A stretch of DNA of 64,000 bases from positions 670-64,669 of the forward strand of contig JAYGCL010000074.1 in assembly GCA_046583365.1 (NCBI GenBank), in the 5' to 3' direction. How positions within the stretch are numbered: the stretch's first letter is position 1; every line of letters starts with the position of its first letter. The stretch is from Deltaproteobacteria bacterium. GTDB lineage: Bacteria; Desulfobacterota; Binatia; UBA1149; CAYXZP01. Positions 3,390 to 29,071 of the stretch are shown here, in pieces. Position numbers and translations under genes: made by a program. The notes below the pieces were generated by a model, which saw only the letters and a program-made list of their open reading frames with translations, did not search any database and was not told the origin of the DNA.

Positions 3390-3404
3390 ACCGTTTGGCG
3401 GCCG

Positions 3405-4259: not shown

Positions 4260-4332
4260 GACCCATGTCTTACACGGTGTCAGCACTGTAGGAAGCGTGG
4301 GCATGGTGGTAGACTCGGGAGTGGGACGGATT

Positions 4333-5070: not shown

Positions 5071-5087
5071 CGGCCGGGCTGGGTGTT

Positions 5088-5429
5088 GTGGGGATAGCAA
5101 TCAAACCTGCTCTGGCGTCAGGCCTGCTGCTGGCCCTGGTGCTTGTGGCCGGGGCGGGGCGGGTCGAGGCGCAACTGTACCGCCCCGGGGCGCTTCCAGG
5201 CCAGGACCACCTCGAAGCCTTGCCCCACGCCCGTACCAGTACCTGTCCCCAGGGCCTTGAAACCCTGCCGTCCCCGGTTCCCGGCGGTGGTGAGTTAATC
5301 GACCTCAAAGGGCGCTTTCGCAGCATAGTGGTGGCACACAGACGCGCCGACGGTAGCCTGGCGCTTTCCTGCACGACCGCCGGATCCGATGATGACGGAC
5401 CGGCCGGGGCGGAGCGGACAGACCGATGA
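5088..5429 (+). CDS. Candidate small secreted protein (about 114 aa) translationally coupled to the downstream metalloprotease
   Basis: In-frame GTG at 5088 gives MGIAIKPALASGLLLALVLVAGAGRVEA|QL, a Sec-type signal peptide. The stop TGA overlaps the ATG of the 5426 gene (ATGA). GC3 is high as in real genes here; there is no homology support. Confidence 0.3.
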   Translation: MGIAIKPALASGLLLALVLVAGAGRVEAQLYRPGALPGQDHLEALPHARTSTCPQGLETLPSPVPGGGELIDLKGRFRSIVVAHRRADGSLALSCTTAGSDDDGPAGAERTDR

Positions 5430-7951: not shown

Positions 7952-8252
7952 TGATGCTTACCGGCAGCGAGTGCAGTTTTTTGCCGGCCGGAGGGCCGTC
8001 GACACAATGACCGCTGTCGATCTGGTAAAGCGCCCCGTGGGTGGCACACTGAATGTAACAGCCGTCGCGGGACAGGAAACGGTTGTCCACCCAGTCCATG
8101 GTCATGGGAATGTGGCGGCATTCGTTGATATACGCGAACAGACGGCCCTTGTGGCGGATTACAAAACCTTGCTTGTCGTCCCCGCTGGAGTCCTTAAAGG
8201 AGAACTTGGCGGTCCCGCCTTCGCCCAATTCCGTATCGGCGGCTACCTTCAT
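7920..8252 (-). CDS. Rieske [2Fe-2S] domain protein
   Basis: CRHIPMTMDW...CATHGALY (CxH...CxxH Rieske ligands). Its 3' end overlaps the annotated MFS start by 32 nt, so the MFS start may be internal. Confidence 0.75.
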   Translation of the reverse strand: MKVAADTELGEGGTAKFSFKDSSGDDKQGFVIRHKGRLFAYINECRHIPMTMDWVDNRFLSRDGCYIQCATHGALYQIDSGHCVDGPPAGKKLHSLPVSISDGYIIVSIP

Positions 8253-8306
8253 AGGCTGAAACTAGCAGCGCGCCTGCTGCGTTACTAATTCTGCTAGAAT
8301 CGGTTC

Positions 8307-10124
8307 GTGATGACCAAGCCGGTATTTGTATATGACGGCGACTGTGACTTCTGCCGTGTATGGATAGAGCGCTGGCGTGAGTTGACCGGCGAGGCGGTCG
8401 ACTACCGTCCCTACCAGCAGGCCGCCGCCGATTTTCCCCACATCCCCGCCGAGGATTTTGTGCGGGCGGCCCACCTCGTCGAGCCCGACGGCAGTGTGAG
8501 CGAAGGGGCTGAGGCCGTGTTCAAAGCCCTGGCTCTGGTGGAGGGGAGGGGGTGGTTGCTCAAACTCTACGCGCTCCCCGGCTTTGCTCGTGCAGCCTCG
8601 GCCGTGTACCGGGCGGTGTCCTCCCACCGCCGCACGGCATCACTGCTGACCTCGCTTTTATGGGGTAAGCGGGTAAAGCGTCCACGCTACAGTCTGGTTC
8701 GTTGGGTCTTCCTCAAGGGCATGGGGGTGGTCTACGCCGTAGCTTTTCTGTCGTTGTGGGTGCAGGTGCATGGGCTTATCGGCAGCCGTGGCATCCTGCC
8801 CGTCGGCCCCTGGCTGGAGTCGGTAGGGATGCAGCAGGCCACGGTCTGGCGTTTTGTAAAGGTTCCCACCCTGCTGTGGTTGGGGTCGGGCGATACCGCC
8901 CTCCACTTGCTCTGTGCCGCCGGCCTGCTGTCGTCGTTGGCCCTGGCCGGCGGTCTGTTGCCCCGCCTTGGCGCGCTGGGAGCCTGGCTCTGCTACCTCT
9001 CCCTGTTCACGGCCGGGCGCGTATTCCTGAGCTTTCAGTGGGACATCCTTCTACTCGAGGCTGGATTTCTGGCCTTACTGTTTGCACCCGGCCGCTTGCG
9101 GCCCGGAGTATTCGGGGGCCGTCCCCCCTCTGCTGCGGTTGTATGGCTTCTACGCTGGCTGCTTTTCCGGCTGATGTTTCTCTCCGGGGCCGTCAAACTT
9201 CTAAGCGGCGACGCTGCGTGGTCGGACCTGACGGCGCTCGGCTTTCACTGGCAAACCCAGCCCCTGCCGGTGGCGACGAGTTGGTATCTCCACCAACTCC
9301 CCGGCTGGTCCCAGCAGGTCTTGTGCGCGGGGGTTTTTGTCGTGGAACTGATAGTGCCGTTTTTTGTCTTTGCCCCTCGCCGCCTGCGCCTGCTGGCCTG
9401 TGGAATCTTTTTGTTCTTTCAGGCCTTGATTGTGGCTACCGGCAACTACGCATTCTTCAACCTGCTTACCGTGGTCCTCTGCATCTGCCTGTTAGACGAC
9501 GATTGGTTGGGACATATGTTGCCAAAACGTATGGCGGGTGTGGCAAGCAAGCCTCCTGTTGCGGCACGGTGTTTTACCGCCGCCGCGGCTTTTGCGGCCC
9601 TGGTCTCACTGCTCGTGGTCACGAGTGGCGCCCAGTTCGCGGGCAGGCTGGGTACTCCGCTTCCACCCGCGCTGCGGGGTCTCGTGTCTGCCTTGGCCCC
9701 CTTGCGCCTGACCAACAGCTACGGGCTCTTTTCCGTCATGAGCAGAAAACGTCCCGAGATAATCGTCGAGGGCAGCATGGACGGAAAAACGTGGCAGGCC
9801 TACGAATTTAAGTGGAAGCCCGGTGACCTCCAGGGCCGGCCCCGTATTGTGGCGCCCCACCAGCCGAGGCTGGACTGGCAGATGTGGTTCGCGGCCCTCG
9901 GCAGTTACCACCGTAATCCCTGGTTTGTCAGCTTCGTGGGGCGTCTGCTGGAGGGGTCCCCGCAGGTTCTTGGTCTGCTCGCGAACGATCCTTTTGATGG
10001 CCGTCCTCCGCGCTATGCAAGGGCGGTGGTCTACGATTACAGCTTTTCCAGTCCCGGCGACGATGCCTGGTGGCGGCGGGTACCTTTGCGTCTCTACATG
10101 CCGGTCATGCAACGCCCCGACTGA
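8307..10124 (+). CDS. Fusion protein: N-terminal DCC-family thiol-disulfide oxidoreductase (DUF393) plus lipase maturation factor (LMF)-like membrane domain
   Basis: N-terminal VYDGDCDFCRVWI (DCC CxxC). The C-terminal half has LMF-like motifs (YGLFSVMSRKRPEIIVEGSMDGKTWQAYEFKWKPGD...DWQMWFAALGSY) and multiple TM helices. Confidence 0.75.
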   Translation: MMTKPVFVYDGDCDFCRVWIERWRELTGEAVDYRPYQQAAADFPHIPAEDFVRAAHLVEPDGSVSEGAEAVFKALALVEGRGWLLKLYALPGFARAASAVYRAVSSHRRTASLLTSLLWGKRVKRPRYSLVRWVFLKGMGVVYAVAFLSLWVQVHGLIGSRGILPVGPWLESVGMQQATVWRFVKVPTLLWLGSGDTALHLLCAAGLLSSLALAGGLLPRLGALGAWLCYLSLFTAGRVFLSFQWDILLLEAGFLALLFAPGRLRPGVFGGRPPSAAVVWLLRWLLFRLMFLSGAVKLLSGDAAWSDLTALGFHWQTQPLPVATSWYLHQLPGWSQQVLCAGVFVVELIVPFFVFAPRRLRLLACGIFLFFQALIVATGNYAFFNLLTVVLCICLLDDDWLGHMLPKRMAGVASKPPVAARCFTAAAAFAALVSLLVVTSGAQFAGRLGTPLPPALRGLVSALAPLRLTNSYGLFSVMSRKRPEIIVEGSMDGKTWQAYEFKWKPGDLQGRPRIVAPHQPRLDWQMWFAALGSYHRNPWFVSFVGRLLEGSPQVLGLLANDPFDGRPPRYARAVVYDYSFSSPGDDAWWRRVPLRLYMPVMQRPD

Positions 10125-10138
10125 ACCGGGTTTTCACG

Positions 10139-11554
10139 GTGGGCTTACCGCCATGGTGGTATTCGCGTAGAATCCCTCTCATCCCTTACTTATCCAACAG
10201 TCGGCGGTGGCGGCGCCTGCGCGAGGCCTTTGGCGTTTACCGCGACCCCCGCATCGTCTCGATCCTCTTCCTCGGATTCTCCAGCGGCCTGCCTCTGGCG
10301 CTTACGTTTTCCACTTTGACCTTCTGGCTCAAGGAGTCGGGACTCACCAATACCACCATCGGTTTGTTCGCATCCGTATCGACCCCCTATGCGCTTAAGT
10401 TTTTGTGGGCACCGCTGGTAGACCGCCTGAACCTGCCCCTGCTGAGCCGGCTTCTGGGACGGCGGCGGGGTTGGGCGGTGGCTACCCAGGTCGCCCTGAT
10501 GGCCGCTCTGGTGGGCCTCGGTTCCACCGACCCGGCCACCCAGGCCGGCACCACGGCGCTGCTGGCTTTTATCGTCGCTTTTTGTTCAGCGTCCCAGGAT
10601 ATTGTCGTTGATGCCTACCGCGTCGAGATCCTCGAGGAACGCCAATATGCGGCAGGCGCGGCGGCCATCGTCTTCGGCTACCGGGTGGGCATGCTGGTTT
10701 CCGGGGCCGGAGCCTTGTTGCTGGCCACCTATGTAGGGTGGTTCGAGGTCTACGTTGCCATGGCGGCTCTGGTCAGTGTGGGCCTGATCACCATCCTTTT
10801 GAGTCCCGAACCGCAAGAGAAATTTACGCAAGAGAGCATCGAGCGGGAAGAACGGGCCACCGAGTACCTGCGCACGCGTCCCCACCTGTCGGGGATGGTC
10901 GCAGACGTGACGGCCTGGCTCTACGTCGCCGTAGCGTGCCCCTTCGCCGATTTTATGGCGCGACGAGGTTGGCTGGCGGTTCTCCTGTTTGTGATGTTCT
11001 ACAAGTTTGGTGATGCCCTGGCCGGGGTCATGACCAACCCCTTCCTGCTCGAACTCGGGTTCACTAAGGCCGAGGTCGCGGCGGTGGTAAAGACCTATGG
11101 TCTGGGTGCCACCCTGGTCGGTGCAGTCCTGGGGGGCAGCCTCATGAAGAGTGTGGGGATGATGCGTTGTCTGTGGATCTGCGGGTTTTTACAGATGTCG
11201 TCCAATCTGATGTTCGCCGTGCAGGCCTGGGCCGGCCACGATCTTATGGTACTGGCGGTTACCATCGGATTGGAAAATCTTGCCGGTGGTATGGGCACGG
11301 CGGCTTTTGTCGCCTACCTCAGCAGTCTGTGCAACGTGGCTTACACGGCCACCCAGTACGCGTTGCTCAGTTCCCTGATGTCGGCGGCGCGAACCTGGCT
11401 GTCGGCTTCGGGCGGTTGGCTGGCCGACCACATGAGTTGGCCCGAGTTCTTTGTGCTGACCACGGTTGCTGCGTTGCCGGGATTGATGTTGTTGGCCCTT
11501 ATCGGGCGCCGCCACATGGGCGGCCTGCCGCAAGTCGGGCAAAGGGAAGGCTAG
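10139..11554 (+). CDS. ampG: AmpG-family muropeptide MFS permease
   Basis: ILFLGFSSGLPLALTFSTLTFWLKESG...GLFASVSTPYALKFLWAPLVDR matches the AmpG N-terminal signature. GTG at 10139 is chosen just after the upstream stop (ORF-track start 10070 overlaps the preceding gene); the start is uncertain. Confidence 0.8.
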   Translation: MGLPPWWYSRRIPLIPYLSNSRRWRRLREAFGVYRDPRIVSILFLGFSSGLPLALTFSTLTFWLKESGLTNTTIGLFASVSTPYALKFLWAPLVDRLNLPLLSRLLGRRRGWAVATQVALMAALVGLGSTDPATQAGTTALLAFIVAFCSASQDIVVDAYRVEILEERQYAAGAAAIVFGYRVGMLVSGAGALLLATYVGWFEVYVAMAALVSVGLITILLSPEPQEKFTQESIEREERATEYLRTRPHLSGMVADVTAWLYVAVACPFADFMARRGWLAVLLFVMFYKFGDALAGVMTNPFLLELGFTKAEVAAVVKTYGLGATLVGAVLGGSLMKSVGMMRCLWICGFLQMSSNLMFAVQAWAGHDLMVLAVTIGLENLAGGMGTAAFVAYLSSLCNVAYTATQYALLSSLMSAARTWLSASGGWLADHMSWPEFFVLTTVAALPGLMLLALIGRRHMGGLPQVGQREG

Positions 11555-11895
11555 GGATTGGAACGTTCTTCGAAGCTTGAAATGTAGTAACCGCTGTTGC
11601 CCAGGGCTTTGTTACATGCTTTCTGGTCGAGGGTTTTGCCGGCCGCCATTTTAACCACCGCGCGTTTGTCGTCGAAGCTGACCTCGGCGCTTTCGACCCC
11701 GTCTATTTTTTTAAGTGCCCCCTCGATGTAGGGCGGGCAACCGACAGAGCAGGACATACCTTCGATGCCGAGTACGTACTCGTGTGCCGGAGCATTGCCT
11801 GACGGAGCGTCGGCAGCGGCCACCGGCCCAGGACAGGCCATCGCCAGAAAGACGGCAACTGTAAATGCGGCCCGGCGCTCTGCTCGCTTTCGCAT
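11551..11895 (-). CDS. Secreted heavy-metal-associated (HMA) domain protein
   Basis: Signal peptide MRKRAERRAAFTVAVFLAMACPGPVAAA plus GMSCSVGC (MxCxxC) HMA motif. Start trimmed from the ORF-track 12090. Confidence 0.75.
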   Translation of the reverse strand: MRKRAERRAAFTVAVFLAMACPGPVAAADAPSGNAPAHEYVLGIEGMSCSVGCPPYIEGALKKIDGVESAEVSFDDKRAVVKMAAGKTLDQKACNKALGNSGYYISSFEERSNP

Positions 11896-11959
11896 ATCGA
11901 CTACATAGAATCGGCCGGGCCGGGAATCAAGCCGCGTGGGCGGCGTGCCAGGGAAAGCA

Positions 11960-13027
11960 ATGTTCAAACAACTGGATATGGGCAGTATAAAGCCGGCTCT
12001 TGACCACTGGCTCAGGCAAAAAATCGGTGATCCCGGTCTCGAGGCCGTCAATATGCGCACACCCGGAGCCGGCGGGATGTCCAACGACACGATTCTTTTC
12101 GAGACCCGGGACAGCGGCGGCCGGGTCCATGAACGACTGGTGGCCAGGCTGGCGCCGACAGAGCAGTTGGTCTTTCCCTCCTACGATCTTTCGGCGCAGT
12201 TCAAGGTCATGAGCAGGCTTGCCGACAGCGGCATCCCCGTACCCGAAACCAGATGGTTGGAGGAGGACACGGAGATCCTGGGAACGCCTTTTTACGTTAT
12301 GGGCGCCGTAGACGGGGAGGCGCCCTCGGATGTTCCCCCTTACCACACCGCGGGTTTGTGTGTGGAGGCCGACGTCGGCCAGCGCGAGACAATGTGGTGG
12401 AGTGGCCTGGACACGATGGCCGCAATCCATGCCCTGGATTGGGAGAAAGCGGGGCTCGATTTTCTCGGCAAGCCCGCCTCTGCGGTTGCGGCTCTGGATG
12501 CCCAACTCTCTTATTGGGAGAACTACCTGGACTGGGCACGTACCGACGAACCCCAGCCGGTGATAGATGCGGGCCGGGTCTGGTTGAGAGAGAACAGTCC
12601 TTCTCCCAGCCGTACGGCCCTGTGTTGGGGCGACTCCCGTCTTCCCAACATGATGTTCAAGGATTTCAAGGTGGCGGCAGTACTCGACTGGGAGATGGCC
12701 TTTATCGGTGACCCCGAGGCCGACCTGGCCTGGTGGTTGTTCCTGGACTGGCACCACAGCGCTGGCTATGGGCTGGAACGTTTGGAAGGTCTACCCGGAC
12801 GTGAGCAGACCGTGGCCCGTTACGAGGAAATAAGCGGCCGGCCGGTGGAGAATCTTTTCTATTACGAAGTGTTTGCGGCCTACCGTTTCGCTGCGATCAT
12901 GATTCGTGTGGTCGAAAATTTGAAGGTAAGAGGCTTCCCGTTGTCGGGACCGGACTTTGGCAGTAACAACCCCTGTACATGCCACCTGGCCGAACTGCTC
13001 GAACTTCCCTCGCCGTCAAACCCCTAG
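11960..13027 (+). CDS. Phosphotransferase (APH/choline-kinase-like) family protein
   Basis: LPNMMFKDFKVAAVLDWEMAFIGDPEADLA is the Brenner/APH catalytic-loop region. ATG at 11960 with GGGAAAG RBS. Confidence 0.75.
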   Translation: MFKQLDMGSIKPALDHWLRQKIGDPGLEAVNMRTPGAGGMSNDTILFETRDSGGRVHERLVARLAPTEQLVFPSYDLSAQFKVMSRLADSGIPVPETRWLEEDTEILGTPFYVMGAVDGEAPSDVPPYHTAGLCVEADVGQRETMWWSGLDTMAAIHALDWEKAGLDFLGKPASAVAALDAQLSYWENYLDWARTDEPQPVIDAGRVWLRENSPSPSRTALCWGDSRLPNMMFKDFKVAAVLDWEMAFIGDPEADLAWWLFLDWHHSAGYGLERLEGLPGREQTVARYEEISGRPVENLFYYEVFAAYRFAAIMIRVVENLKVRGFPLSGPDFGSNNPCTCHLAELLELPSPSNP

Positions 13028-13049
13028 GCGGACCTGCGGGGTCGTTTGG

Positions 13050-14060
13050 ATGTTGGAGACAGCCGGCTACCGAATGCCCGCCGAATGGGAGCCCCACCGT
13101 GCCTGCTGGTTGGCCTGGCCTTGTCAGGAGGACCTGTGGGGAGAAGACCTTGACGGCGTACGTCGCGAGTTTGTGGGTCTTTGCCGGGCCATCGGTGGTG
13201 AGAAAGTTGAGGTCCTGGTCTTCGACGAAGCCGGCCAACGGCAGGCCCGCCGTGAACTGGCAGGAGTAGACGCCGATTTCCACCGTGCGGCCTATGGGGA
13301 TGTGTGGCTACGTGACACCGGTCCGTCCTTTCTCGTTGACGCCGGTGGTGGGCTGGCCGGGCTGTGTTTCAGGTTTAACGGTTGGGGGGAAAAATACCTG
13401 TTTGAATCCGACGACACGGTGGGCGTTCGTGTAACCGTCCTGGCCGGTGCGGCGGTGTTGGAAGCCGGGGGTATGGTGGTCGAGGGCGGAGCCCTCGAGG
13501 TTGACGGCCAGGGCACCTGTCTGACCACCCGCAGTTGCCTGCTCAACCACAACCGTAACCCGCAAATGGACGAGGAAGGGGCGGGAGCGTTTTTGTGTGA
13601 GGCTTTGGGGGTGGAAAAAGTTTTGTGGCTGGAACGCGGACTCGATAGCGACCATACCGATGGTCACGTGGACACTCTGGCCCGTTTTAGTCAGCCTGGA
13701 CGCGTGGTTTGTATGCGGGCGGGCAATGCCGGTGATCCCGGCTGTGAGGTGTTTGCCGAGGTGGAAAAGACGCTGTCGGCGGCCACCGATGCCGGCGGAC
13801 GGCGATTGGAAGTCGTTACCCTGCCTTCGCCCGGTGCGGTTAACGGGCAGGACGGGTCTCTGTTGCCGGCCAGCTATCTCAACTTTTATATCTCCAACTC
13901 AAGCGTCGTAATTCCCGTCTACGGTTCGGTCCACGACCGGGAGGCTGTTGACACCATTGCCTCTCTGTTCCCCGGCCGCGAGGCCGTGGCTCTTGAGGCC
14001 CGGTTGTTGTTGGGCGGTGGCGGGGCTTTCCACTGTATCACCCAGCAGGAGCCGGCATGA
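13050..14060 (+). CDS. aguA: Agmatine deiminase
   Basis: MPAEWEPH...WLRDTGP...GGALEVDGQGTCLTT...DGHVD...GGGAFHCITQQ is the agmatine deiminase/PAD family pattern. Confidence 0.85.
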   Translation: MLETAGYRMPAEWEPHRACWLAWPCQEDLWGEDLDGVRREFVGLCRAIGGEKVEVLVFDEAGQRQARRELAGVDADFHRAAYGDVWLRDTGPSFLVDAGGGLAGLCFRFNGWGEKYLFESDDTVGVRVTVLAGAAVLEAGGMVVEGGALEVDGQGTCLTTRSCLLNHNRNPQMDEEGAGAFLCEALGVEKVLWLERGLDSDHTDGHVDTLARFSQPGRVVCMRAGNAGDPGCEVFAEVEKTLSAATDAGGRRLEVVTLPSPGAVNGQDGSLLPASYLNFYISNSSVVIPVYGSVHDREAVDTIASLFPGREAVALEARLLLGGGGAFHCITQQEPA

Positions 14061-14926
14061 AAGATCTGCTGCTGGCTGTGGTGCAGGCGGCACTCGGTGG
14101 CGACCGTGCCCACAACAACGCCAGGATAGAGGAACTCGTGCGCGAAGCGGCCGGTCGCGGGGCCGGCTTCGTGGTACTTCCCGAACTGTTTGATGGTCCG
14201 TATTTCTGCAAGGGCAAGGACCCTCGCCACTTCGACCTGGCCCGCCCGGCCGGCAGTCACGAGACGGTTGAACGCTTCAGGCGCCTGGCCGCCGAGCTCG
14301 GTCTGTGTCTGCCGGTTTCTTTCTTCGAGCGAGACGGAGAGCGTTTCTACAACAGTGTGGCTCTGATTGATGGTGGGGGGCGTATCGACGGAGTTTATCG
14401 CAAGAGCCACATCCCTGATGGTCCGGGCTACGAAGAGAAATACTACTTCGAAGCCGGCGACAGCGGCTTCAATGTCTGGTCCACCAAACACGGTTGCGCC
14501 GGAGTGGGCATATGCTGGGATCAGTGGTTCCCCGAGTGCGCCCGTTCTCTGGTGCTTGGGGGGGCAGATTTTCTGGTCTACCCCTCGGCCATAGGCAGCG
14601 AACCCGAAGACCCGGACCTGGATACCAGGGGGCCCTGGCGGCGTGTAATGATCGGACATGCCGTGGCCAACGCGGTGGCGGTGGCCGCTGCCAACCGTAT
14701 TGGAGAGGAAGATGGGCAGGTGTTTTACGGCAACTCTTTTATCGCCGACCACAAAGGGGAAGTATTGGCCTCACTGGCCGAGGATGAAGAGGGCGTTGCC
14801 GTGGCGAGGGTGGATATTGCCGAGGTGAGACGCTACAGAGAGTCCTTCTCCCTGATCGGCGACCGCCGTCCCGACCTCTATCAATCCCTTGTCGGTGGGC
14901 AAGGCGTGAAAACGGTAAAGCGATGA
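14057..14926 (+). CDS. aguB: N-carbamoylputrescine amidohydrolase (CN-hydrolase family)
   Basis: Nitrilase-superfamily E-K-C triad context (VLPELF...GICWDQWFPE). ATGA overlap with aguA. Confidence 0.85.
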   Translation: MKDLLLAVVQAALGGDRAHNNARIEELVREAAGRGAGFVVLPELFDGPYFCKGKDPRHFDLARPAGSHETVERFRRLAAELGLCLPVSFFERDGERFYNSVALIDGGGRIDGVYRKSHIPDGPGYEEKYYFEAGDSGFNVWSTKHGCAGVGICWDQWFPECARSLVLGGADFLVYPSAIGSEPEDPDLDTRGPWRRVMIGHAVANAVAVAAANRIGEEDGQVFYGNSFIADHKGEVLASLAEDEEGVAVARVDIAEVRRYRESFSLIGDRRPDLYQSLVGGQGVKTVKR

Positions 14927-19927: not shown

Positions 19928-20833
19928 TTGCGGGCCTTGGACCCGGCCTCCGACAAGCAAGAACTCCGCTTTGACCTCTCCGACGGCCTGACCATGGTCG
20001 CCGATGCACGGGGCAATCCCGAAGACCCACCGGTTTTCCTGCTCCACGGTGGGGGCCAGACCCGTCATGCCTGGGGCGGTACCGCGCGCGAGCTGGCGAC
20101 GGCCGGCTTTTACACCCTGTCCTTCGACCTGCGCGGCCACGGTGACAGCGACTGGGATCCCGACGGCGATTACATGATCGAGACCTTTTCCAGGGATCTG
20201 GTGGAGATGGTCGATGGTATGGGTGTGCATCCCTGCGTGGTAGGTGCGTCTTTGGGAGGGCTGACCGCACTGCTGGCCGAAGGCGAGATTCGCCCCGGCC
20301 TCCTTAAAGCGGTGGTGTTTGTGGACATAACCCCGCGCATGACTCCCGAGGGGACCGAACGTATTTTTAAGTTCATGACGGCCAAGCCCGACGGTTTTGT
20401 GTCGTTGGAGGAAGCCGCCGATCATGTGGCCGCATTCATGCCCCACCGTCCTCGCCCGGACGACCACAGTGGCCTGGAGAAGAACCTTCGTCTGGGAGAG
20501 GATGGCCGCTACCGCTGGCATTGGGATCCACAGTTTCTCAATGGGCGCATCAACCGGTCTTATAGCGAGGAGGAAAGGGCGGCATTTCTTGGCCGTCTGA
20601 ACGGGGCCGCCGCTTCCCTGTCCCTCCCCACCATGCTGATACGCGGGCGCATGAGTGACATTGTCAGTGAGGATGCTGCGCGCGAGTTTCTCGAATTGGT
20701 GCCGCATGCGGAATATGTGGACGTCGAGGATGCCGCGCACATGGTTGCGGGTGACCGCAATGATATTTTCACGAAAGCGGTGAAGGATTTTCTGGTTCGG
20801 GCGGTGCCGCGCCCGAGCGTAGACCGTCGTTAG
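19928..20833 (+). CDS. Alpha/beta hydrolase fold protein
   Basis: PVFLLHGGGQTRHAW...GASLGG nucleophile elbow. TTG start per ORF track; exact start uncertain. Confidence 0.8.
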   Translation: MRALDPASDKQELRFDLSDGLTMVADARGNPEDPPVFLLHGGGQTRHAWGGTARELATAGFYTLSFDLRGHGDSDWDPDGDYMIETFSRDLVEMVDGMGVHPCVVGASLGGLTALLAEGEIRPGLLKAVVFVDITPRMTPEGTERIFKFMTAKPDGFVSLEEAADHVAAFMPHRPRPDDHSGLEKNLRLGEDGRYRWHWDPQFLNGRINRSYSEEERAAFLGRLNGAAASLSLPTMLIRGRMSDIVSEDAAREFLELVPHAEYVDVEDAAHMVAGDRNDIFTKAVKDFLVRAVPRPSVDRR

Positions 20834-22731
20834 TTTCCTGGAGCCATCAGTACGGTGGCGAAGCGGGCCTGCCTGTCTCGCCATATCTCAACCACTCGCA
20901 TGCCGCCGCCGGTGGCGAGATTGCGGATCTCATCTTCCGAGTATTTGTAGGAATCTTCGGTGTGGATGCGCTCTCCCTTGCCGAAAACCACCCTCAGGCC
21001 GAGGGCGTTGACCACTACGGTCTGCTGGCGGCAACTTTCAATGTGCATCTCCACCCGCCCCTCGGCCTCCAGATATATGGCCCGGTGTCTGAAGCCATCA
21101 AGGTCGAAGTCGGCGCCGAGTTCACGGTTGATTCGTGCCAGGATGTTGAGGTTGAAACGAGCCGTAACTCCGCTGGCGTCGTCGTAGGCGCGTTCCAGGG
21201 TTTCGCGGTCCTTTCTGAGGTCAACGCCGATAAGAAGACGGTCGGCTGCCGACATCAGCTTGCCGAGGCCGGTCAAAAATTCAGCGGCGGCCTTCCTTTC
21301 AAAATTGCCCACATTGGATCCCAGCCAGGCTATGAGTTTTGCACCGTGGGACAACTCGGCGGTTCTCTGCAGTCCCTCGGTATACTCTGCAGCTACGGGG
21401 ATGATTTCCAGGCCTTCGAATTCGTTTTTCAGTTCAGCCTCGCTCTGGGTCAGAGCCGATGTCGAGATGTCGATGGGTATATAACGACGGAGTCCGCCAG
21501 GTTGTGCCCGGAAGGCCGCGATGAGGTTGTGGGTTTTTCTGGCACTGCCGCTTCCCAATTCGACAATCTCACTGACCCCGTCGCAGAGCGCTGCGATGCT
21601 GGACGAATAGGTTTTTAAAATCTCTTCTTCGCTACGAGTCAGGTAGTACTCGGGCAGTTCACAGATTTCTTCGAAAATTCGTGAACCCTCCTGGTCGTAG
21701 AAAAACCGGCAGGGGAGGCGTTTGGGACTGGCCCCCAGCCCCTGGCCTACGGCTTGGGCAAGTCCGCTGTCCATTGTGTCGTCGGCCGGCAGTAGCTCGG
21801 CAAGAAGGTTGCGCCAGGCCTCTTTTTCTTTTGCCGGCCTGACACGGTCGGCAAGGCGCGAGATTGCACCTTTCAAGGAACGATAGAACAGGGGGTCGTT
21901 TTCTGCACGTAGAATAAGGCGGGCCAGGCCGGCTACGTCGCCGCTTGCAAAGTAGCCGGGGTAGTCGTGGCCCAGTATGCCCAACGAACCGGGTATGCGC
22001 GATGCCAGTATTGGTGTGCCTGTGGCGATGGCCTCCGATATCACATTGGCCCCTCCCTCCAGGCGAGATGGGTGTATGAGCAGGTGGGAGGAGGCCAGGA
22101 CAGCCAGGGCCTCCTGGCTTCCGACCTCGCCAAGCCAGGTGTAGCGGTGGTTTGCCCTTTGCTCGGCCCTGGCTCTTGCCGCCATACCCTCTGCTATGCC
22201 GCGACCGGCTTGCAGCATGGACACCCGCGAGTGGCTTGGCAGCAGGCGCAGGGCCTTGGCCGGCAGGAAGGGGTCTTTGACGGCTCGTAGATGGCCGAGC
22301 ACGCAGGCTTGAAAGCCTGCCGCCCGGCGTTGGGGAATTGGCGGTTTTGCCGACTGGTAGATGACCCTGGTCTTTTTGCGCGCCTCGGGCGGCAGTTCAC
22401 GTGTGGCCTGGGGTTGCAGTACCACCAAGCGGGAGGCCTGGGAGATTACTTGCATGGCTTGGGGGCTGTTGTGGATGTCGTGGTAAAGGTCGGTTCCGGC
22501 CAGACCCACGATCAGTGGCATATCCGGGTTGGCATCTTTGAATCGAAGCGCCGCTGGCGCGCTGCGGTGGGCGTGGAGGGCTATGAGAAGGTCGCAGTCC
22601 TGGCCGTCGTAGTGGTCGGATATGCTCGTTCGGTGGCCCAGTTCCTCAAGAATCCCGGCCCAGCGCAAAGCGGTAACACTATTGCCCCCCGGCACCAGGA
22701 CCCCTCCCGGTGTGACCAGATGTATTTTCAT
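20830..22731 (-). CDS. Fusion protein: N-terminal GT-B glycosyltransferase (SenB/TIGR04348-like) plus C-terminal EgtD-type L-histidine N-alpha-methyltransferase
   Basis: N-terminal MKIHLVTPGGVLVPGGNSVTALRWA...EGGANVISEAIATGTPILAS is a GT4-like C-terminal motif. The C-terminal half carries the full EgtD signature FFYDQEGSRIFEEICELPEYYLTRSEEEIL...ELGSGSARKT...YDDASGVTARFNLNILARINRELGADFDLDGF. The ATG at 22731 overlaps the upstream stop (ATGA); the ORF-track N-terminal extension to 23091 lies inside the egtB-like gene. Confidence 0.75.
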   Translation of the reverse strand: MKIHLVTPGGVLVPGGNSVTALRWAGILEELGHRTSISDHYDGQDCDLLIALHAHRSAPAALRFKDANPDMPLIVGLAGTDLYHDIHNSPQAMQVISQASRLVVLQPQATRELPPEARKKTRVIYQSAKPPIPQRRAAGFQACVLGHLRAVKDPFLPAKALRLLPSHSRVSMLQAGRGIAEGMAARARAEQRANHRYTWLGEVGSQEALAVLASSHLLIHPSRLEGGANVISEAIATGTPILASRIPGSLGILGHDYPGYFASGDVAGLARLILRAENDPLFYRSLKGAISRLADRVRPAKEKEAWRNLLAELLPADDTMDSGLAQAVGQGLGASPKRLPCRFFYDQEGSRIFEEICELPEYYLTRSEEEILKTYSSSIAALCDGVSEIVELGSGSARKTHNLIAAFRAQPGGLRRYIPIDISTSALTQSEAELKNEFEGLEIIPVAAEYTEGLQRTAELSHGAKLIAWLGSNVGNFERKAAAEFLTGLGKLMSAADRLLIGVDLRKDRETLERAYDDASGVTARFNLNILARINRELGADFDLDGFRHRAIYLEAEGRVEMHIESCRQQTVVVNALGLRVVFGKGERIHTEDSYKYSEDEIRNLATGGGMRVVEIWRDRQARFATVLMAPGN

Positions 22732-23879
22732 CAGCCAGTAGCCACGGTGCGAAACCCAGCCATTACATCGCGGCGGTCGGGTGTGTAGTAGTTGCGCAGG
22801 GTGTTGCGCAGCAGCCTTGATCTGGTGGCCCAGCACCCGCCCCGCAGCACCTTGTGGCCCAGAAACCACGGCACCGAATACTCCTTGTAGGGATCCGGAA
22901 TAAATCCGGGGTAAGGGCCGAAATCTGATGCCGTCCATTCCCAGACCTTGCCGCCGTCGAGCAAGCCGGCCGCAGCCGCGGCTTCCCACTCGGCCTCGCC
23001 GGGCAGACGACGGCCGGCCCAACGGCAGTAGGCCTGGGCCTCGTGCCAGTTCACATGGATGACGGGTCTTGACGGGTCCAGTTGCGTCCACTGGTCAAAG
23101 CGGCGGACCAGCCAACCTCGGCCTGGCTCGGACTTCCAGTAAACAGGGTTTTCGGCCGCGGCTGATTTGCGCCACGACCAACCGTCCGGGCTCCACAGCC
23201 GGCGCTGGCGGTAGCCGCCGTCGTCTACAAAGGCGGCAAACTCGGCCTCACTTACGGCCGCGCGCGCAATGGCAAAGGCCGGCAACAGGACTTCGTGGCC
23301 CCACTTCTCATTGTCGAAGACAAACTCTTCACTGCCGTTGGCCCCCAGCATAAATCGCTGTGTTGGCATTGTCGCGTCGCCTTGGACCCCGTGCTTCGGA
23401 GCGGACTCGGAGAGTTGCCTCTGCATTTTGACGGGCGGTGGCGGGTAGGCCAGCGTCTGTCTGGTACAGACGAAGGCCTCATCGTGCATGTCTTCGTGAA
23501 ATACACTGTAGAGGATGAAGTAGAGCAGGCCGCGGGTGGGCTGGCGGCCGCCGAGCAGGTCGAGTACCCGGTCACCAACGGTGGCCACGTACCCAAGGGT
23601 GTCGGAGCGCGATGGCAGCGGCAGGTCCCAACGCAGGTCGTGGGCGATGGCAATGGAGTCCCACAGGGCGTCGCCGTCGGGACGGATTGGCGCCAGCCCG
23701 CAGGCGTGGCGCAGAACCCATTTCTCCTGGAACCAGGCGATGTGGCCCAGTTCCCAGAGCAGCGGGTTGACGGTGGCCAGACGGGGGCCGATGAGTTGAG
23801 CGTCGTCGAGGTCGGCAACCAGAGTGAGGCTCCGTTTGCGGGCGTTCTCGACCCAGCCGGCAAGAGTAGAGGGGTCCAA
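22731..23879 (-). CDS. EgtB-family sulfoxide synthase (DinB_2 plus FGE-sulfatase domains); ergothioneine EgtB or selenoneine SenA-like
   Basis: WELGHIAWFQEKWVLR plus FHEDMHDEAF form a 3-His iron site in the DinB-like domain. The C-terminal FGE-sulfatase domain reads VNWHEAQAYCRWAGRRLPGEAEWE...RGGCWATRSRL. It uses a TTG start. Confidence 0.8.
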   Translation of the reverse strand: MDPSTLAGWVENARKRSLTLVADLDDAQLIGPRLATVNPLLWELGHIAWFQEKWVLRHACGLAPIRPDGDALWDSIAIAHDLRWDLPLPSRSDTLGYVATVGDRVLDLLGGRQPTRGLLYFILYSVFHEDMHDEAFVCTRQTLAYPPPPVKMQRQLSESAPKHGVQGDATMPTQRFMLGANGSEEFVFDNEKWGHEVLLPAFAIARAAVSEAEFAAFVDDGGYRQRRLWSPDGWSWRKSAAAENPVYWKSEPGRGWLVRRFDQWTQLDPSRPVIHVNWHEAQAYCRWAGRRLPGEAEWEAAAAAGLLDGGKVWEWTASDFGPYPGFIPDPYKEYSVPWFLGHKVLRGGCWATRSRLLRNTLRNYYTPDRRDVMAGFRTVATG

Positions 23880-23942
23880 GGCGGCCGGAGTTTAGCATGG
23901 CGGCTTGTTCATCCCAGCCCCGTACTGCTACAAGACCATGCC

Positions 23943-24374
23943 ATGCAGGAAGTAGAGGTAAAGGCCAGCATAAACGGCCGTCGTGAGGAAGTCTGGAATT
24001 TGTATACCGACCATGTCTCCTGGCAGGAGTGGTCGAAGATAGGCAAGGTCCGTCTGGCTTGCGAAGGACAGCCGGCACCCAATGGGGTGGGCTGCGTTCG
24101 TGTCATATCCAATGGCCCGATTTCGGTTGAAGAGAAGATCCTCAGTTTCGATAGTCCCCGGCGTATGACCTACACGATTGTGCGTGGTGGCCTGCCCATA
24201 AAAGACCACCTTGGAGAGGTGGTCTTCAGCGATGAGGGGGAGACCACTCTTATTACCTGGCGCTGCCGCTTCCGTTCCCGGATCCCCGGACTCGGCTTTT
24301 TGTGGAAGGCCATAGTCAACCGTGTGTTCACGCAGACTCTGGATTCTCTCGGCCGCCGTTTTGGACAGCCGTAG
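23943..24374 (+). CDS. SRPBCC (polyketide cyclase/START-like) family protein
   Basis: Only the C-terminal 143 aa of ORF 23295..24374 is plausible (MQEVEVKASINGRREEVWNLYTDHVSWQEW...). The upstream part is antisense to the egtB-like gene. Confidence 0.6.
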   Translation: MQEVEVKASINGRREEVWNLYTDHVSWQEWSKIGKVRLACEGQPAPNGVGCVRVISNGPISVEEKILSFDSPRRMTYTIVRGGLPIKDHLGEVVFSDEGETTLITWRCRFRSRIPGLGFLWKAIVNRVFTQTLDSLGRRFGQP

Positions 24375-24834: not shown

Positions 24835-25137
24835 GTCGGGGAGGGATTGGTGAACTACGTCTATGTAGCCCCCACACGGGTGGGTGGGGTTGAGTTGGAG
24901 GCAGCTGCGAGGCGGTTTTTACCGGCAAAGTTGCTTGGGCTGCAGTATAGCTTATTCCCCAGCCCCGGCTGGGATTTTGCCAGTTGGTACAGTTTCTTTC
25001 GGTCCGGCAGGGCTTTTTGAGGCTCGTTGGGGCTGTTTATCATTGACAACCGGGGCCGGGTTTTTCTAACTTGGACAGTGGTGGAAATGTTTTTCCAAGC
25101 GTTTCCCGGTGTTGACAGGATTCAGGGGAGGAACTCC

Positions 25138-28083
25138 ATGCGCATATCCAAATCGGTGATTTTTACGGTCGGCGCTCTTGCAGCGGTCGTCTTGCTGTCG
25201 GCTGCTCCCGCTTCGGCTGCGGTGACTTCGGCTGCGATGACCAAACTCGAGGCCAAGTGTGCCGGCAAGGTGGCCAAGGGGGCGGCCAAGGTCAGCAACA
25301 CGGTTATCAAGGAGACCATGAAGTGCCGGGACCGGGACATTTCCGGCAAGACCGTGGGGGTCTGCCCCAGTTCTGCCAGTAACGCGAAGGTCGCCAAGGC
25401 CAACGCCAAGCTTGCCAAAATCGCGCGCAAGACCTGTGGGAGTACCTGCAAGTTGACCACCGACCTCTTCTGCTTGGTCAACGCCCATTGCCCACCTCTG
25501 GGGGCGACCGACGAACGCTGTTCGGGAGATACCGGTCTCAAGGTTTTCGACATGAACCGTGTCGGTTTTCCAGGGGCCTTTTGTGACGGAGTCCTGGGCC
25601 ATGAAATCCTCAGTGCCGACGATATCGCCGAATGTGCAGGGTTGGTGGTGACCGGTGCCGCCAACAACCTGGTCACCGCCGTATACGGTGGTACGACCAA
25701 TGCGTCGTCTCTTTCCAAGGGGGCCCAGAAGTGTCTCAGCGGCATAGGCAAGTCGGCCAACAAACTGGTCCAGACTATTTTGAAGGGAACCGTGAAATGT
25801 CGTGGGGCCATTACTAAGGGCAAGATATTCGGCGACCCCGTGACCTGCGCCCTGGCAGACCCCAAGATTGCCGGCAAGATAGCCAAGATTCAGGCCAAGC
25901 TAAGTACAACGTTTTCGTCCAAGTGCAGCGATGAGACCGTGGCCGTCCTCGACCTTTGCGGCAACGGGGTTGGTGGTACCGCCGACGTGGTGGCGGCCGA
26001 AGCTTGTATCCTGGACGCGGCCAGAGAAATTGCCGACGGTCAGGAATTGGCGACGGCCCGAAACTACTCCTCCAAGTCAATCATTGAAGGGGCCTTCCCT
26101 CCGGCTCCCTCTTGCGGTGACGGCATTGTAAACCAACTTGCCGGCTTTTACCTGCGCCTAGGGGAGGAGTGCGACGGTGACGATGATAGCGCGTGTCCGG
26201 GGCTCTGCTTTCCGCCCGGAGACTTGTTCGAGTGCACCTGTGCAAACGTTGCGCGTATTCTCGTAATCAACGACGGCCCGGGCAGTGATAACGACACCGG
26301 TTGGACAGGGCTTGCCCACAACCAACCTATACCCGACCAGGGGGGTTACATCCAGGCTGTAAGCGGCTGCGACTGTGACGACTTTGATGGCTTGAACTGT
26401 GTAGGCAACAGTACCGACAGTGTATGCGACCTTGACGGCTATCAGACGCCGGTTTGTTCCGGGGATCCCCACAGCCAGACGAGCTGTGATCAGCACGGGG
26501 ACAATAACGGCAGAGACACTGACAGCGATTGTTACGTCTGTGACCAGTACAACACCAATGTCGGCGACTCGTGCACGAATTCCAGCGGCTGTCAGGCCCA
26601 GTGCCACGACACGGACTTAAACCCCACCGGCCAGCTCTGTGACCGCCAGAGCGATTGCGATGCCGGCAGTTTCTGCCGTGGACGCTGCGATGACTCCCGG
26701 CGCTGCCTGAAATCCTATAACGGTGGCCCCTTGCCGGTTTCAACCGCCAGTTCAGCGGCGTGTGCGACGCAGGTATTTCGCACCAACACTACCGGAACCG
26801 TCAACATCCAGACCGGTGCAAGTGAAGAGTGGTACGGACTTTTTGCCGGAATCTTTCTTGGCGTCGGTTCCACCTATCCCTGCCCGATCTGCGGCGGTTT
26901 CTGCGATGGCGGTAGCCGCCCCGGTGACACTTGCGAGGGGACCTGCGAGAATAGTGGTGCGTTTTGCCGCTTCGACAGCGATTGTAGTGACGGTGAGGCG
27001 TGCGATGGAGACACTCCGCTCTGTCCCGATGGTGGCACCTGCGTTCTCGAGAACATCTGCCGTTGGGGCCCCAACGAGGGCGAGACCTGTAAGATCGACT
27101 ACCGCCACGCCCAATTCGGGACCATGTCCAACCATTGTCCGCCCGATAAAGGCAAAAATATCTCCGGCGATGGCCTGAGGGCGGAGAATGTGCCCCTGAC
27201 TACTACCGACCGCACCTTTGTGGCTGAACTGCCGTGTTCGTCGCCCGGTTACGAGTTGTTCAGTTGCCACTGTCCAGACGACGGTGGGGCGCTGACAAAG
27301 CCCAACTCCTGCTCCCCGGCTTGCACGGCCGGAGCCGAGGCCGGCCAGGGCTGTGCCGATTCCAACTCAACCACCGGTGGCGGGGACTTTACGGCTTGTG
27401 CCGGTGGTGCCAACGTGGGCAAGGCCTGCGATGAAGACGGCGACTGCCCCGGCAGCTCCTGTTCGGTCAATCCATTGCACTGTAGTGGTGATGCTGCCTA
27501 CGAACATATGCCGTGTTCGGGAGACGGTGACTGTGGCAGTGGCAGTTGTGTGGACGCCTGTCCGCAAGGCCGCTGCGTGCCCCTTTGTGTGGCCAAGGAT
27601 GGCGCTCCATACGAAGGCGTCTGTGCTGCCGGCCCCCCGGTCTTTCACTGCGAGTCGGGCAAGTACACTGGGCGCAACTGCCCGCCCTCGGCTGCGTATT
27701 CCGACTGTCAGGCCACCTGTAGCGGTTCGGGGGTATTGTGTACTGGTGACGAGCAGTGTCCGGCCGGCCAGACCTGTGCGGGCCCCTGCGATACCCACAG
27801 GGAATGTGGTGCCGGCCTCGACGGTATTCTCGGCAACTGGGATGACCTCTTTGGTGCCGGCGCCTGTATTGCCGACGAACGCAGTTGCTTCTCCGCTCAG
27901 ATTCCCGGAACGGGCGGGACTACTTTGAATGGTAAGGGTGATGCCACCAACGTGTTCCAGAACAACCTGACCTGTTACACCTCGACCAACAATGCGCCCA
28001 CCAACAATGTTACGGGCCTGGGTGGGCCGGCCAGGAATCACAAGCACGCGACGCGTATCCCCAATTTCACGTCTTTACCCTAG
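25138..28083 (+). CDS. Large secreted cysteine-rich repeat protein (about 981 aa) with Myxococcus-type cysteine-rich repeats (TIGR02232/DUF4215-like)
   Basis: Signal peptide MRISKSVIFTVGALAAVVLLSAAPASA with GGGGAGG RBS. N-terminal Lys-rich repeats (AKCAGKVAKGAAKVSNTVIKETMKC; AQKCLSGIGKSANKLVQTILKGTVKC). Then CGDGIVNQLAGFYLRLGEECDGDDDSACPGLC repeats and about 100 Cys in C-x-C spacings. A paralog lies at 1..892. Confidence 0.8.
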   Translation: MRISKSVIFTVGALAAVVLLSAAPASAAVTSAAMTKLEAKCAGKVAKGAAKVSNTVIKETMKCRDRDISGKTVGVCPSSASNAKVAKANAKLAKIARKTCGSTCKLTTDLFCLVNAHCPPLGATDERCSGDTGLKVFDMNRVGFPGAFCDGVLGHEILSADDIAECAGLVVTGAANNLVTAVYGGTTNASSLSKGAQKCLSGIGKSANKLVQTILKGTVKCRGAITKGKIFGDPVTCALADPKIAGKIAKIQAKLSTTFSSKCSDETVAVLDLCGNGVGGTADVVAAEACILDAAREIADGQELATARNYSSKSIIEGAFPPAPSCGDGIVNQLAGFYLRLGEECDGDDDSACPGLCFPPGDLFECTCANVARILVINDGPGSDNDTGWTGLAHNQPIPDQGGYIQAVSGCDCDDFDGLNCVGNSTDSVCDLDGYQTPVCSGDPHSQTSCDQHGDNNGRDTDSDCYVCDQYNTNVGDSCTNSSGCQAQCHDTDLNPTGQLCDRQSDCDAGSFCRGRCDDSRRCLKSYNGGPLPVSTASSAACATQVFRTNTTGTVNIQTGASEEWYGLFAGIFLGVGSTYPCPICGGFCDGGSRPGDTCEGTCENSGAFCRFDSDCSDGEACDGDTPLCPDGGTCVLENICRWGPNEGETCKIDYRHAQFGTMSNHCPPDKGKNISGDGLRAENVPLTTTDRTFVAELPCSSPGYELFSCHCPDDGGALTKPNSCSPACTAGAEAGQGCADSNSTTGGGDFTACAGGANVGKACDEDGDCPGSSCSVNPLHCSGDAAYEHMPCSGDGDCGSGSCVDACPQGRCVPLCVAKDGAPYEGVCAAGPPVFHCESGKYTGRNCPPSAAYSDCQATCSGSGVLCTGDEQCPAGQTCAGPCDTHRECGAGLDGILGNWDDLFGAGACIADERSCFSAQIPGTGGTTLNGKGDATNVFQNNLTCYTSTNNAPTNNVTGLGGPARNHKHATRIPNFTSLP

Positions 28084-28107
28084 ACGTTGGTTGGCGCGCC
28101 GCTCCTG

Positions 28108-28145
28108 AAAAAAGGGGCCGTCCTTTTGGGCGGTCCCTTTTCTTT
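28108..28145. terminator. Bidirectional rho-independent terminator between the convergent Cys-rich protein gene and the CDF gene
   Basis: AAAAAA-GGGGCCG-(10 nt loop)-CGGTCCC-TTTTCTTT: a 7-bp GC stem (one G:U) flanked by A and T tracts on both sides. Confidence 0.6.
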
Positions 28146-29071
28146 CAGGGGCAAACATCGCTTTCTTCAAAGCCGCTTGCTTCTATCTGTATGGTGATGT
28201 GGCCGATGCCGAAATCACCAAGGACGAGTGCGCGGATGCGGGCGAGCAGGTCTTGCTGACGGCTACCGTCGGCAATCACGACGTGCCCCGACAGTGCCTC
28301 CATGCCGCTGGAGATGGTCCAGATGTGCAGGTCGTGAACCTCAAGGACTCCGTCCAGGGCCGCTATAGAATCCCTGACCCCATCCACGTCTATGTGGCCA
28401 GGGGCTCCTTCCATTAACACGGCGACCACTTCTTTCAGCAACGCCCAGGATGAGTAGATCACCAGGATAGAGATAAGGAAGGAGGCGGCCACATCGGCCT
28501 GATTCCAGCCCAGCTTCCAGATCAGCAATCCGGCGACAATGGCACCCACGCTGCCCAGGGCGTCGCTTACCAGATGGAGCCAGGCTCCGCGCAGGTTGAG
28601 GCTTTCACCCTTGCCGGAATTCAGGAGGAAAAGGCCGACGATGTTTACGGCAAGTCCTCCACAGGCCACTACCAACATGGGTCCCCCGAGTACGGGCACG
28701 GGGGCGGACAGCCGCGAGTAGGCTTCAAGGAGAATGTAGGCGGCGATGGCCACAAGGGCGGCGCCGTTTACCAGGGCGGCGAGGATCTCGATACGGTAGT
28801 ACCCGTAAGTGCGGCTTGGTGTCGGTGGCCGTTTAGCGACCCACACCGCAAATAGTGATAGGGCCAGGGCGGCCACATCGGTAAGCATGTGGCCGGCGTC
28901 GGCCAGCAGGGCCAAGGAACCGGTGAGCAGGGAACCGACGACCTCGGCGACCATGTAAACCGCCTGCATGGCCAGTACTGTGGCCAGGCGCCGCGTGCTG
29001 CGGGCCGTCGGGCTGCTGTGGCCAGGGTGCGAAGGGTGGGGGTGGTGGGAATGTTCGTGGGGGGTCGTCAT
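28145..29071 (-). CDS. Cation diffusion facilitator (CzcD/ZitB-type) transporter
   Basis: His-rich N-terminus, six TM helices, HMLTDVAAL and HLVSDALGSV motifs, and a C-terminal cytoplasmic domain. Confidence 0.85.
   Translation of the reverse strand: MTTPHEHSHHPHPSHPGHSSPTARSTRRLATVLAMQAVYMVAEVVGSLLTGSLALLADAGHMLTDVAALALSLFAVWVAKRPPTPSRTYGYYRIEILAALVNGAALVAIAAYILLEAYSRLSAPVPVLGGPMLVVACGGLAVNIVGLFLLNSGKGESLNLRGAWLHLVSDALGSVGAIVAGLLIWKLGWNQADVAASFLISILVIYSSWALLKEVVAVLMEGAPGHIDVDGVRDSIAALDGVLEVHDLHIWTISSGMEALSGHVVIADGSRQQDLLARIRALVLGDFGIGHITIQIEASGFEESDVCP

Follow-up and report, generated by a model that had tools for sequence, protein, structure and literature searches.

An 82-cysteine protein with a Sec signal peptide from uncultured Binatia-like bacteria, founding-type member of an undescribed multi-copy family

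The gene described here lies in a 64,000-nucleotide stretch of a metagenome-assembled genome (MAG) labelled Deltaproteobacteria bacterium (GTDB class Binatia; assembly GCA_046583365.1, contig JAYGCL010000074.1, positions 670 to 64,669 of the forward strand), referred to below as the window. The coding sequence (25138..28083, +) specifies 981 amino acids plus a stop codon and begins with an ATG that aligns with the starts of about 59 full-length homologues. A Shine-Dalgarno sequence, GGGGAGG (25125..25131, +), can be read 6 nt upstream of this ATG, and a longer open reading frame (ORF) from TTG 25027 was rejected, since both the homologues and the Shine-Dalgarno sequence favour ATG 25138. Downstream, a long GC-rich hairpin of 52 nt (28101..28152, assigned to neither strand), with an A-run and a T-run in its arms, lies between the 981-aa gene and a convergent gene for a CDF exporter (Cation_efflux and ZT_dimer domains, 28145-29071). 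The hairpin has a dG of -42.4 kcal/mol (z = -5.2) and 0 of 200 shuffled sequences were as stable; it is plausibly terminator-like in both directions. The initial annotation of the locus, made by a model from the DNA letters, had proposed a real exported-protein ORF with a good ribosome-binding site and a bidirectional terminator downstream; the former is borne out and the latter is plausible. The protein is 100% identical to the NCBI MAG protein VCA74_07290 (P0001), annotated 'hypothetical protein [Deltaproteobacteria bacterium]'. The GC content at third codon positions of the gene (0.68) is similar to that of its neighbours, and there is therefore no hint of recent import.

The first 27 residues (25138..25218, +) have the features of a Sec signal peptide of the signal peptidase I type (MRISK-SVIFTVGALAAVVLLSAA-PASA, followed by AV after the predicted cleavage site behind ASA), and residues 1-32 are unstructured in the AlphaFold model, with a predicted local distance difference test score (pLDDT) <50. 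All of the 52 homologues that were aligned (52/52) start at the equivalent Met and carry the same n-h-AxA signal peptide without a lipobox Cys, which argues that both the start and the export call are correct. We rejected a lipoprotein on account of the AxA cleavage site, the lack of a lipobox and the location of the first Cys (aa 41) within a helix. A sorted surface protein (LPXTG, PEP-CTERM, MYXO-CTERM or T9SS CTD) was likewise rejected, because the protein ends in ...NFTSLP, has no hydrophobic tail and matches no NCBIfam sorting domain. Models of phage proteins (PHROGs) and of anti-phage defence (PADLOC) gave 0 matches at E<=0.1. The protein contains 82 Cys (8.4%), 125 Gly, 80 Asp and 15 His; the initial annotation had rightly described an exported, very Cys-rich protein, with an overestimate of about 100 cysteines. 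A multihaem c-type cytochrome was rejected because CxxCH is absent and none of the 15 His is conserved. The motifs HExxH and GxSxG are also lacking in the window protein.

The ~59 full-length homologues are collinear with the window protein, measure 935-1170 aa and are 33-52% identical to it; those with a named source come from Candidatus Binatia, Binatota or 'Deltaproteobacteria' MAGs. In GTDB, sampled at one genome per species, 115 stretches encode relatives, and the close family occurs in about 24 MAG species, usually at 2-7 loci per MAG (7 in OFTM64), several of which hold tandem pairs. When 1.84 billion cluster representatives were searched with a profile, the number of matching clusters rose from 118 at E<=1e-30 to 488 at E<=1e-10 and to 1354 at E<=1e-3, the last tier possibly containing composition-driven matches. 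The window protein and P0002-P0059 have in common a collinear length of ~935-1170 aa, the signal peptide, two 4-Cys hairpins, a CGDG..GEECDG unit, the GWTG, PCPxCGG and NISGxG motifs and a conserved C-terminus, and we refer to them as the 82-Cys family. We found no description of this family in the literature on DUF4215 or on Binatia and cysteine-rich proteins. The window protein is a founding-type member of an undescribed, multi-copy, lineage-expanded family of uncultured Binatia-like bacteria. It should be noted that family genes also occur on contigs labelled Nitrosopumilus sp., an archaeon (L035 and L036, CAXQPB010000172/191), and on one of a Gemmatimonadaceae MAG (L047); these are most likely mis-binned Binatia contigs.

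The cysteines are strongly conserved across the 52-sequence alignment, about 70 of the 82 being invariant and 6 more present in at least 90% of sequences. Their number is exactly 82 in 29/52 homologues and even in 44/52, and Cys 857-884 form a block of six that is gained or lost together. The conserved number, the mostly even parity and the block-wise gain and loss of cysteines are what structural disulfides would be expected to produce, in keeping with the extensive disulfides that the initial annotation had read from the Cys/Asp pattern. The 82 Cys and 80 Asp could also be taken as ligands, in a periplasmic or extracellular protein that binds or buffers metal through Cys thiolates and Asp carboxylates and is tied to the adjacent CDF exporter, whose convergent gene has the terminator in common with the 981-aa gene. 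We consider this very unlikely: exact number, parity and block-wise change suit structural disulfides better than thiolate clusters, no His is conserved, and the confident, ordered AlphaFold model is unlike that of metallothionein-type proteins. The CDF gene, moreover, adjoins no other family locus, and a functional link to it was rejected for this reason.

Apart from Cys, Gly and Pro, the invariant residues in the same alignment are E38, A287, D328, E343, D427, D464, D469, L637 and T752, and nearly every conserved polar residue is an Asp, Asn or Glu. The invariant set includes no His, Ser, Lys or Tyr, which argues against a secreted hydrolase, oxidase or other enzyme whose active site has gone unrecognised, as do the missing CxxCH, HExxH and GxSxG motifs and the failure of Pfam, NCBIfam, PDB and Foldseek comparisons to return any enzyme family or fold. 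The protein does have properties that would suit an enzyme, being large, globular, confidently folded and strongly conserved, and one distant relative (P0129, 1928 aa) joins a tyrosinase domain (PF00264, aa 358-546) to the family's helical/CGDG region (aa 1276-1501). We nevertheless hold an enzymatic function to be improbable.

AlphaFold models the full protein with a pLDDT of 88.9 and a predicted template modelling score (pTM) of 0.80, as helical from aa 36 to 320 and as beta strands plus loops from aa 370 to 981. The helical part contains a ~70-aa 4-Cys helical hairpin in two tandem copies (aa ~32-100 and ~190-263; hhalign 98.3%, E 1.3e-14; 97.7% in self-comparison). Module 1 (aa 32-104; 25231..25449, +) is Lys-rich, with a pI of 10, consists of helices 36-69 and 79-99, and shows the conserved 4-Cys pattern C41/C63/C76/C100, with C104 just past the module. 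It is followed by an acidic, Cys-containing insert (aa 105-189; 25450..25704, +; pI 4.2) and then by module 2 (aa 190-274; 25705..25959, +; pI 8.9 in the window protein), a duplicate of module 1 with helices 194-226 and 242-262. The initial annotation had noted at least four Lys/Ala-rich motifs here, in a region different from the rest of the protein. The region does differ and the Lys/Ala-rich stretches exist, but the four helices are two copies of one hairpin. Averaged over the 52 homologues, the hairpin modules have net charges of +6.5 and +4.8 and the whole N-terminal domain is near neutral. A homologue search with this domain alone returned one fragment, which we take to be a word-indexing artefact on K/A-rich sequence.

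The remainder of the protein (aa 321-981; 26098..28080, +) contains 66 Cys and is strongly acidic, with a net charge of -55 and a pI of 4.2; the domain is acidic in every homologue (net charge -31 to -91). Modelled alone, the C-terminal 662 aa gave a pLDDT of 89.2 and a pTM of 0.82. The secondary-structure string places long strands at 373-387, 403-409, 539-547, 551-556, 562-574, 680-688, 938-946 and 964-975, with long stretches rich in Cys, Asp and Gly between them, and judging from this string the domain appears to consist of a beta core from which inserted Cys-rich loops emerge. Conserved motifs of the domain are GWTGxxHN, PCPxCGG and NISGxGL. Conservation across the family extends to the last residue, N-[FV]-[TPD]-S-[LI]-P-COOH (aa 968-981; 28039-28080), and this end, ...NFTSLP in the window protein, comes after the last long strand, 964-975, in the model; the conserved C-terminus might conceivably have a recognition or sorting role.

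No structural relative of either part was recovered. Foldseek searches of PDB and BFVD gave no match at E<=0.001 (for the C-terminal domain the best E was 3.6, with a TM-score of about 0.05), and in PDB the full model matched only helical bundles, none of them significantly. Searches of PDB sequences, with the single sequence or with a 52-sequence profile, returned noise, such as T4 gp10 (E 0.16) and the vinculin tail (E~1). Within the Cys-rich stretches, mini-motifs of the form C-x2-D-x-[DQ]-C-x2-G-x2-C (aa 501-523, 610-635, 764-782, 793-817 and 868-890) bear what we take to be a likeness to eukaryotic Dickkopf, LDL-A and EGF-like modules. These are small disulfide knots of extracellular proteins (the Dickkopf N-terminal Cys-rich region and the Ca2+-binding LDL-A and EGF-like modules). 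The conserved Asp/Asn of the window protein would be suited to Ca2+ sites, and the protein may possibly bind Ca2+, to judge from these positions. Its modules, however, are predicted to be loops inserted into a beta core rather than beads on a string. Hidden Markov models (HMMs) of EGF, LDL-A and TB domains did not match the whole protein at E<=1, and the best match of any excised segment, to Dickkopf_N, was non-significant (E 0.37; 11.6 bits vs. a cut-off of 25).

The initial annotation had assigned the protein to the Myxococcus-type cysteine-rich repeat family (TIGR02232/DUF4215), with tandem CGDG...EECD repeats, and had suggested an adhesin. The strings it quoted (CGDG..GEECDGDDD, CDCDDFDGLNC and CPICGGFCDGG) are all present. 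There is, however, a single degenerate DUF4215-like unit, CGDG-x14-GEECDGDDDSACPGLC...CTC (aa 326-368; 26113..26241, +), read from the sequence and matched by no HMM. Its first part (aa 326-357) reads CGDG-x14-GEECDGDDDSAC-x3-C and resembles what we take to be the consensus of the Myxococcus unit, CG[DN]G-x(5-7)-GE.CDDGN...C...C, with an 8-residue insertion; the likeness is a resemblance only. Within the family, no stretch is better conserved than the region of this unit (conservation 0.77 at aa 331-360). Neither Pfam nor NCBIfam matched the whole protein (0 matches each at E<=1), seven excised segments gave nothing significant against the same libraries, and none of the seven, aa 318-375 included, matched DUF4215 even at E<=10. 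Precomputed Pfam domains were found in 0/68 database homologues. No repeats were detected when the protein was compared with itself by BLASTP. A profile-profile self-comparison of the family alignment found a single strong internal repeat, in the N-terminal region, and for the C-terminal 660 aa weak echoes of the mini-modules (30-58% probability) that form no array.

Shorter paralogues and distant relatives do show DUF4215 matches, at E 0.0017 (19 bits) and E 0.0076 (17 bits), below the curated cut-off of PF13948 (27 bits). Like the Myxococcus repeat proteins, the window protein is secreted, rich in Cys and Asp and from a 'delta-proteobacterial' lineage, and a near-threshold DUF4215 unit is found at the end of shorter paralogues in the family's gene clusters. 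It differs from them in that a lone degenerate CGDG...GEECDG...C...C unit stands in place of a tandem array of ~40-47-aa units, and in that some 95% of its length (the helical domain, the beta core and the other Cys-rich loops) is unrelated to the repeat, itself without known function. With no HMM match, one degenerate unit and no periodicity, the repeat-family reading is refuted by the very test that the initial annotation had set for it, and a tandem-repeat adhesin of this type is, in our estimation, a very remote prospect. The practical outcome is the correction of an attractive but wrong annotation.

Parts of the protein recur elsewhere in other combinations. A paralogue of 616 aa (F~630), dockerin-like at its N-terminus and with a near-threshold match to DUF4215 at its C-terminus, aligns to aa 382-705 of the window protein without the large Cys-rich insertions, while a paralogue of 746 aa (F~720) has both hairpin modules and aa 527-778 in common with the window protein. 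At one family locus (L001), a 505-aa protein has nothing but the helical module and CGNG..GE.CD units in common with the family and matches Pfam Dockerin_1. The dockerin-like N-termini and this Dockerin_1 protein point to a single head domain that is combined with interchangeable modules for attachment. Such an arrangement recalls cohesin-dockerin assemblies, in that paralogues sharing the Cys-rich beta core have dockerin-like segments at their N-termini; it differs from them in that the window protein has no dockerin and starts instead with an unclassified pair of helical hairpins, presumably disulfide-bonded. No cohesin partner was identified for the dockerin-like proteins of the family. More distant arrays (27-29% identity) of 3-6 family genes each occur in Polyangiaceae and Binatia MAGs, and among these genes lies one for a thioredoxin-like CPFC (DsbA-type) lipoprotein of the Rcas_1661 family (NF041057, E 1e-34; L070 15238-17031, also in L071, L075 and L081), which may be a dedicated disulfide oxidoreductase.

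To compare gene contexts, ORFs were called crudely in 81 loci and clustered, and a neighbour-joining tree was built from the ~1000-aa members. The deep-branching copies lie in a conserved cell-envelope gene cluster of Binatia (L024, L026, L027, L029, L038-L041, L044, L057, L059, L062 and L063), exemplified by L040 169-18089. Its order is TonB-dependent receptor, dockerin-like protein (taken to be a beta-propeller), ECH/3HCDH enzyme, PMT_2 glycosyltransferase, DUF1302 outer-membrane barrel, small Cys-rich lipoprotein, F~720, F~1000, a protein that weakly matches PDZ-like domains, a lipoprotein that is rich in Thr and has an acidic double-disulfide repeat, F~630, small lipoproteins and a TPR membrane protein. 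Most of these components belong to no Pfam family, and three Cys-rich superfamily members of different lengths are included. In a younger clade the context is TetR - P450 - FGGY/2-Hacid_dh/SCP2/aldolase fusion - KshA-type Rieske - F. The copy in the window falls into a clade of dispersed paralogues.

The best explanation of these data, to which we give about an even chance, is a Sec-exported, non-enzymatic, disulfide-stapled protein with a binding or structural role in the cell envelope or outside the cell. After export, Dsb-dependent oxidative folding would yield a rigid body with ~41 disulfides. The N-terminal ~290 residues, a helical domain built from the duplicated basic, Lys-rich 4-Cys hairpin, would serve as an attachment or assembly module. 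The C-terminal ~660 residues, a strongly acidic domain that appears to be a beta core bearing numerous small inserted loops, Cys-knotted and rich in Asp and Gly, would be the working head for a ligand or partner, possibly stabilised by Ca2+. This division of labour is proposed because the beta core and the helical module each occur with other partners. The family is lineage-specific and has multiplied in Binatia-type genomes, with the older copies in the cell-envelope gene cluster. An adhesin or matrix protein is a possible form of such a role.

Several points weigh against this explanation. Localisation, disulfide bonding and a binding role are all predictions, and disulfide pairs and any pocket in the window protein are putative. 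The window copy lies among unrelated metabolic genes, in a context that is not conserved, so that the envelope-cluster argument is borrowed from its paralogues. The neighbour comparison relied on crude ORF calling. An electrostatic anchoring role for the N-terminal domain is weakly founded, since the domain as a whole is weakly basic and the family mean is neutral. The protein could also conceivably be an unusual enzyme despite its lack of a catalytic motif.

A sharper form of the binding-protein explanation would make the family the exposed portion of an apparatus in the outer membrane, with a DUF1302 barrel or a TonB-dependent receptor as its base. This apparatus would capture hydrophobic substrates, such as lipids, fatty esters, sterol-like compounds or compounds derived from alkanes, or pass them on to the abundant beta-oxidation and oxygenase machinery of Binatia. 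In 13 loci F~1000 is preceded, two genes upstream, by a DUF1302 gene, the TonB receptor being in the same cluster, and a DUF1329 gene adjoins the tandem copies in L001. The second conserved context, with its P450, SCP2-containing fusion and KshA-type Rieske genes, would suit the same purpose, as would the genes that flank the window copy (SRPBCC, 4HBT thioesterase, KshB-like reductase and CoA-transferase). Pseudomonas putida mutants in DUF1302/DUF1329 genes are impaired on fatty esters, Tween 20 among them (bioRxiv 10.1101/2020.07.04.188060). By gene neighbourhood, the older family copies are associated with DUF1302 and, once, with DUF1329; the proteins themselves have no sequence relationship to these outer-membrane systems, no such link exists at the window locus, and the function of DUF1302/1329 is itself unsettled. 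Contexts also vary among paralogues, and neither Pfam nor Foldseek detected an SCP2, LolA or FadL hydrophobic-ligand fold in the window protein. Because Binatia genomes are crowded with such catabolic genes, adjacency may be due to chance, and we keep this hydrophobic-capture proposal as a tentative and rather unlikely one.

In the window itself, the neighbours of the 981-aa gene encode an SRPBCC protein, a 4HBT thioesterase, the CDF exporter, an FNR/Fer2 reductase and a CoA-transferase, none of them conserved at other family loci. An operon with the upstream thioesterase gene was rejected in view of a 300-bp gap and the lack of a conserved context. A 359-aa ORF (23295-24374, +) matches Polyketide_cyc2/SRPBCC over residues 217-356 only; its true start is probably much later, since its 5′ part overlaps an EgtB-like gene on the other strand. 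The latter (DinB_2 plus FGE-sulfatase) adjoins a 753-aa fusion of an N-terminal GT4 glycosyltransferase to an EgtD-like histidine methyltransferase (Methyltransf_33), the two forming an ergothioneine-type pair (20830-23879, -).

Farther upstream, window positions 2157-14926 share synteny with the surroundings of the L001 and L014 family genes. In the place occupied by the Cys-rich gene at these two loci, an MFS transporter gene (6614-7951, -) stands in the window, whose own copy lies 15 kb downstream; synteny being kept but the gene displaced, the data suggest that the paralogue was relocated or replaced. A 395-aa ORF without a Pfam match (5426-6613, +) has homologues a few genes away from the Cys-rich genes (L001 13409-14839; L014 13579-14757), and a gene pair for agmatine deiminase (PAD_porph) and a CN_hydrolase (12957-14926, +), corresponding to the agmatine-to-putrescine route, is syntenic with L014. 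The same region encodes a 605-aa fusion of a DCC1-like thiol-disulfide oxidoreductase to LMF1 and LMF1_C domains (8307-10124, +), followed by an MFS/Acatn transporter gene (10070-11554, +). Fusions 47-48% identical to it adjoin family paralogues in L001 and L014, in the latter case divergently and about 100 bp apart. In eukaryotes, LMF1 (lipase maturation factor) aids the maturation of disulfide-rich lipases. The DCC1-LMF1 fusion is a candidate folding helper, the link being seen in 3 loci only.

A broader proposal is that the C-terminal 660 residues represent a new, extremely disulfide-dense extracellular fold (~33 disulfides in one domain) of a large modular exoprotein superfamily of Binatia and Polyangiaceae-type bacteria, with interchangeable attachment through basic helical hairpins or dockerins and a DUF1302/TonB-receptor machine; we regard it as speculative and unlikely in this full form. 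The same holds for its extension, in which the superfamily might have its own oxidative-folding factors (the DsbA-like lipoprotein and the DCC1-LMF1 fusion) and capture hydrophobic or other scarce substrates of the deep ocean.

To our knowledge, bacterial exported proteins rarely have more than a few disulfides, and 981 residues with 82 positionally conserved cysteines would represent an extreme of oxidative folding in the bacterial envelope, encoded by a gene that an uncultured phylum retains in several copies per genome. A confident structure prediction without a Pfam, NCBIfam or PDB relative makes the protein a clean target for the definition of a new domain family and possibly of a new fold. 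Binatia are abundant in deep-sea and soil metagenomes and have been implicated in the turnover of hydrocarbons and methyl compounds. The 82-Cys family provides a handle on the cell-surface biology of these bacteria.

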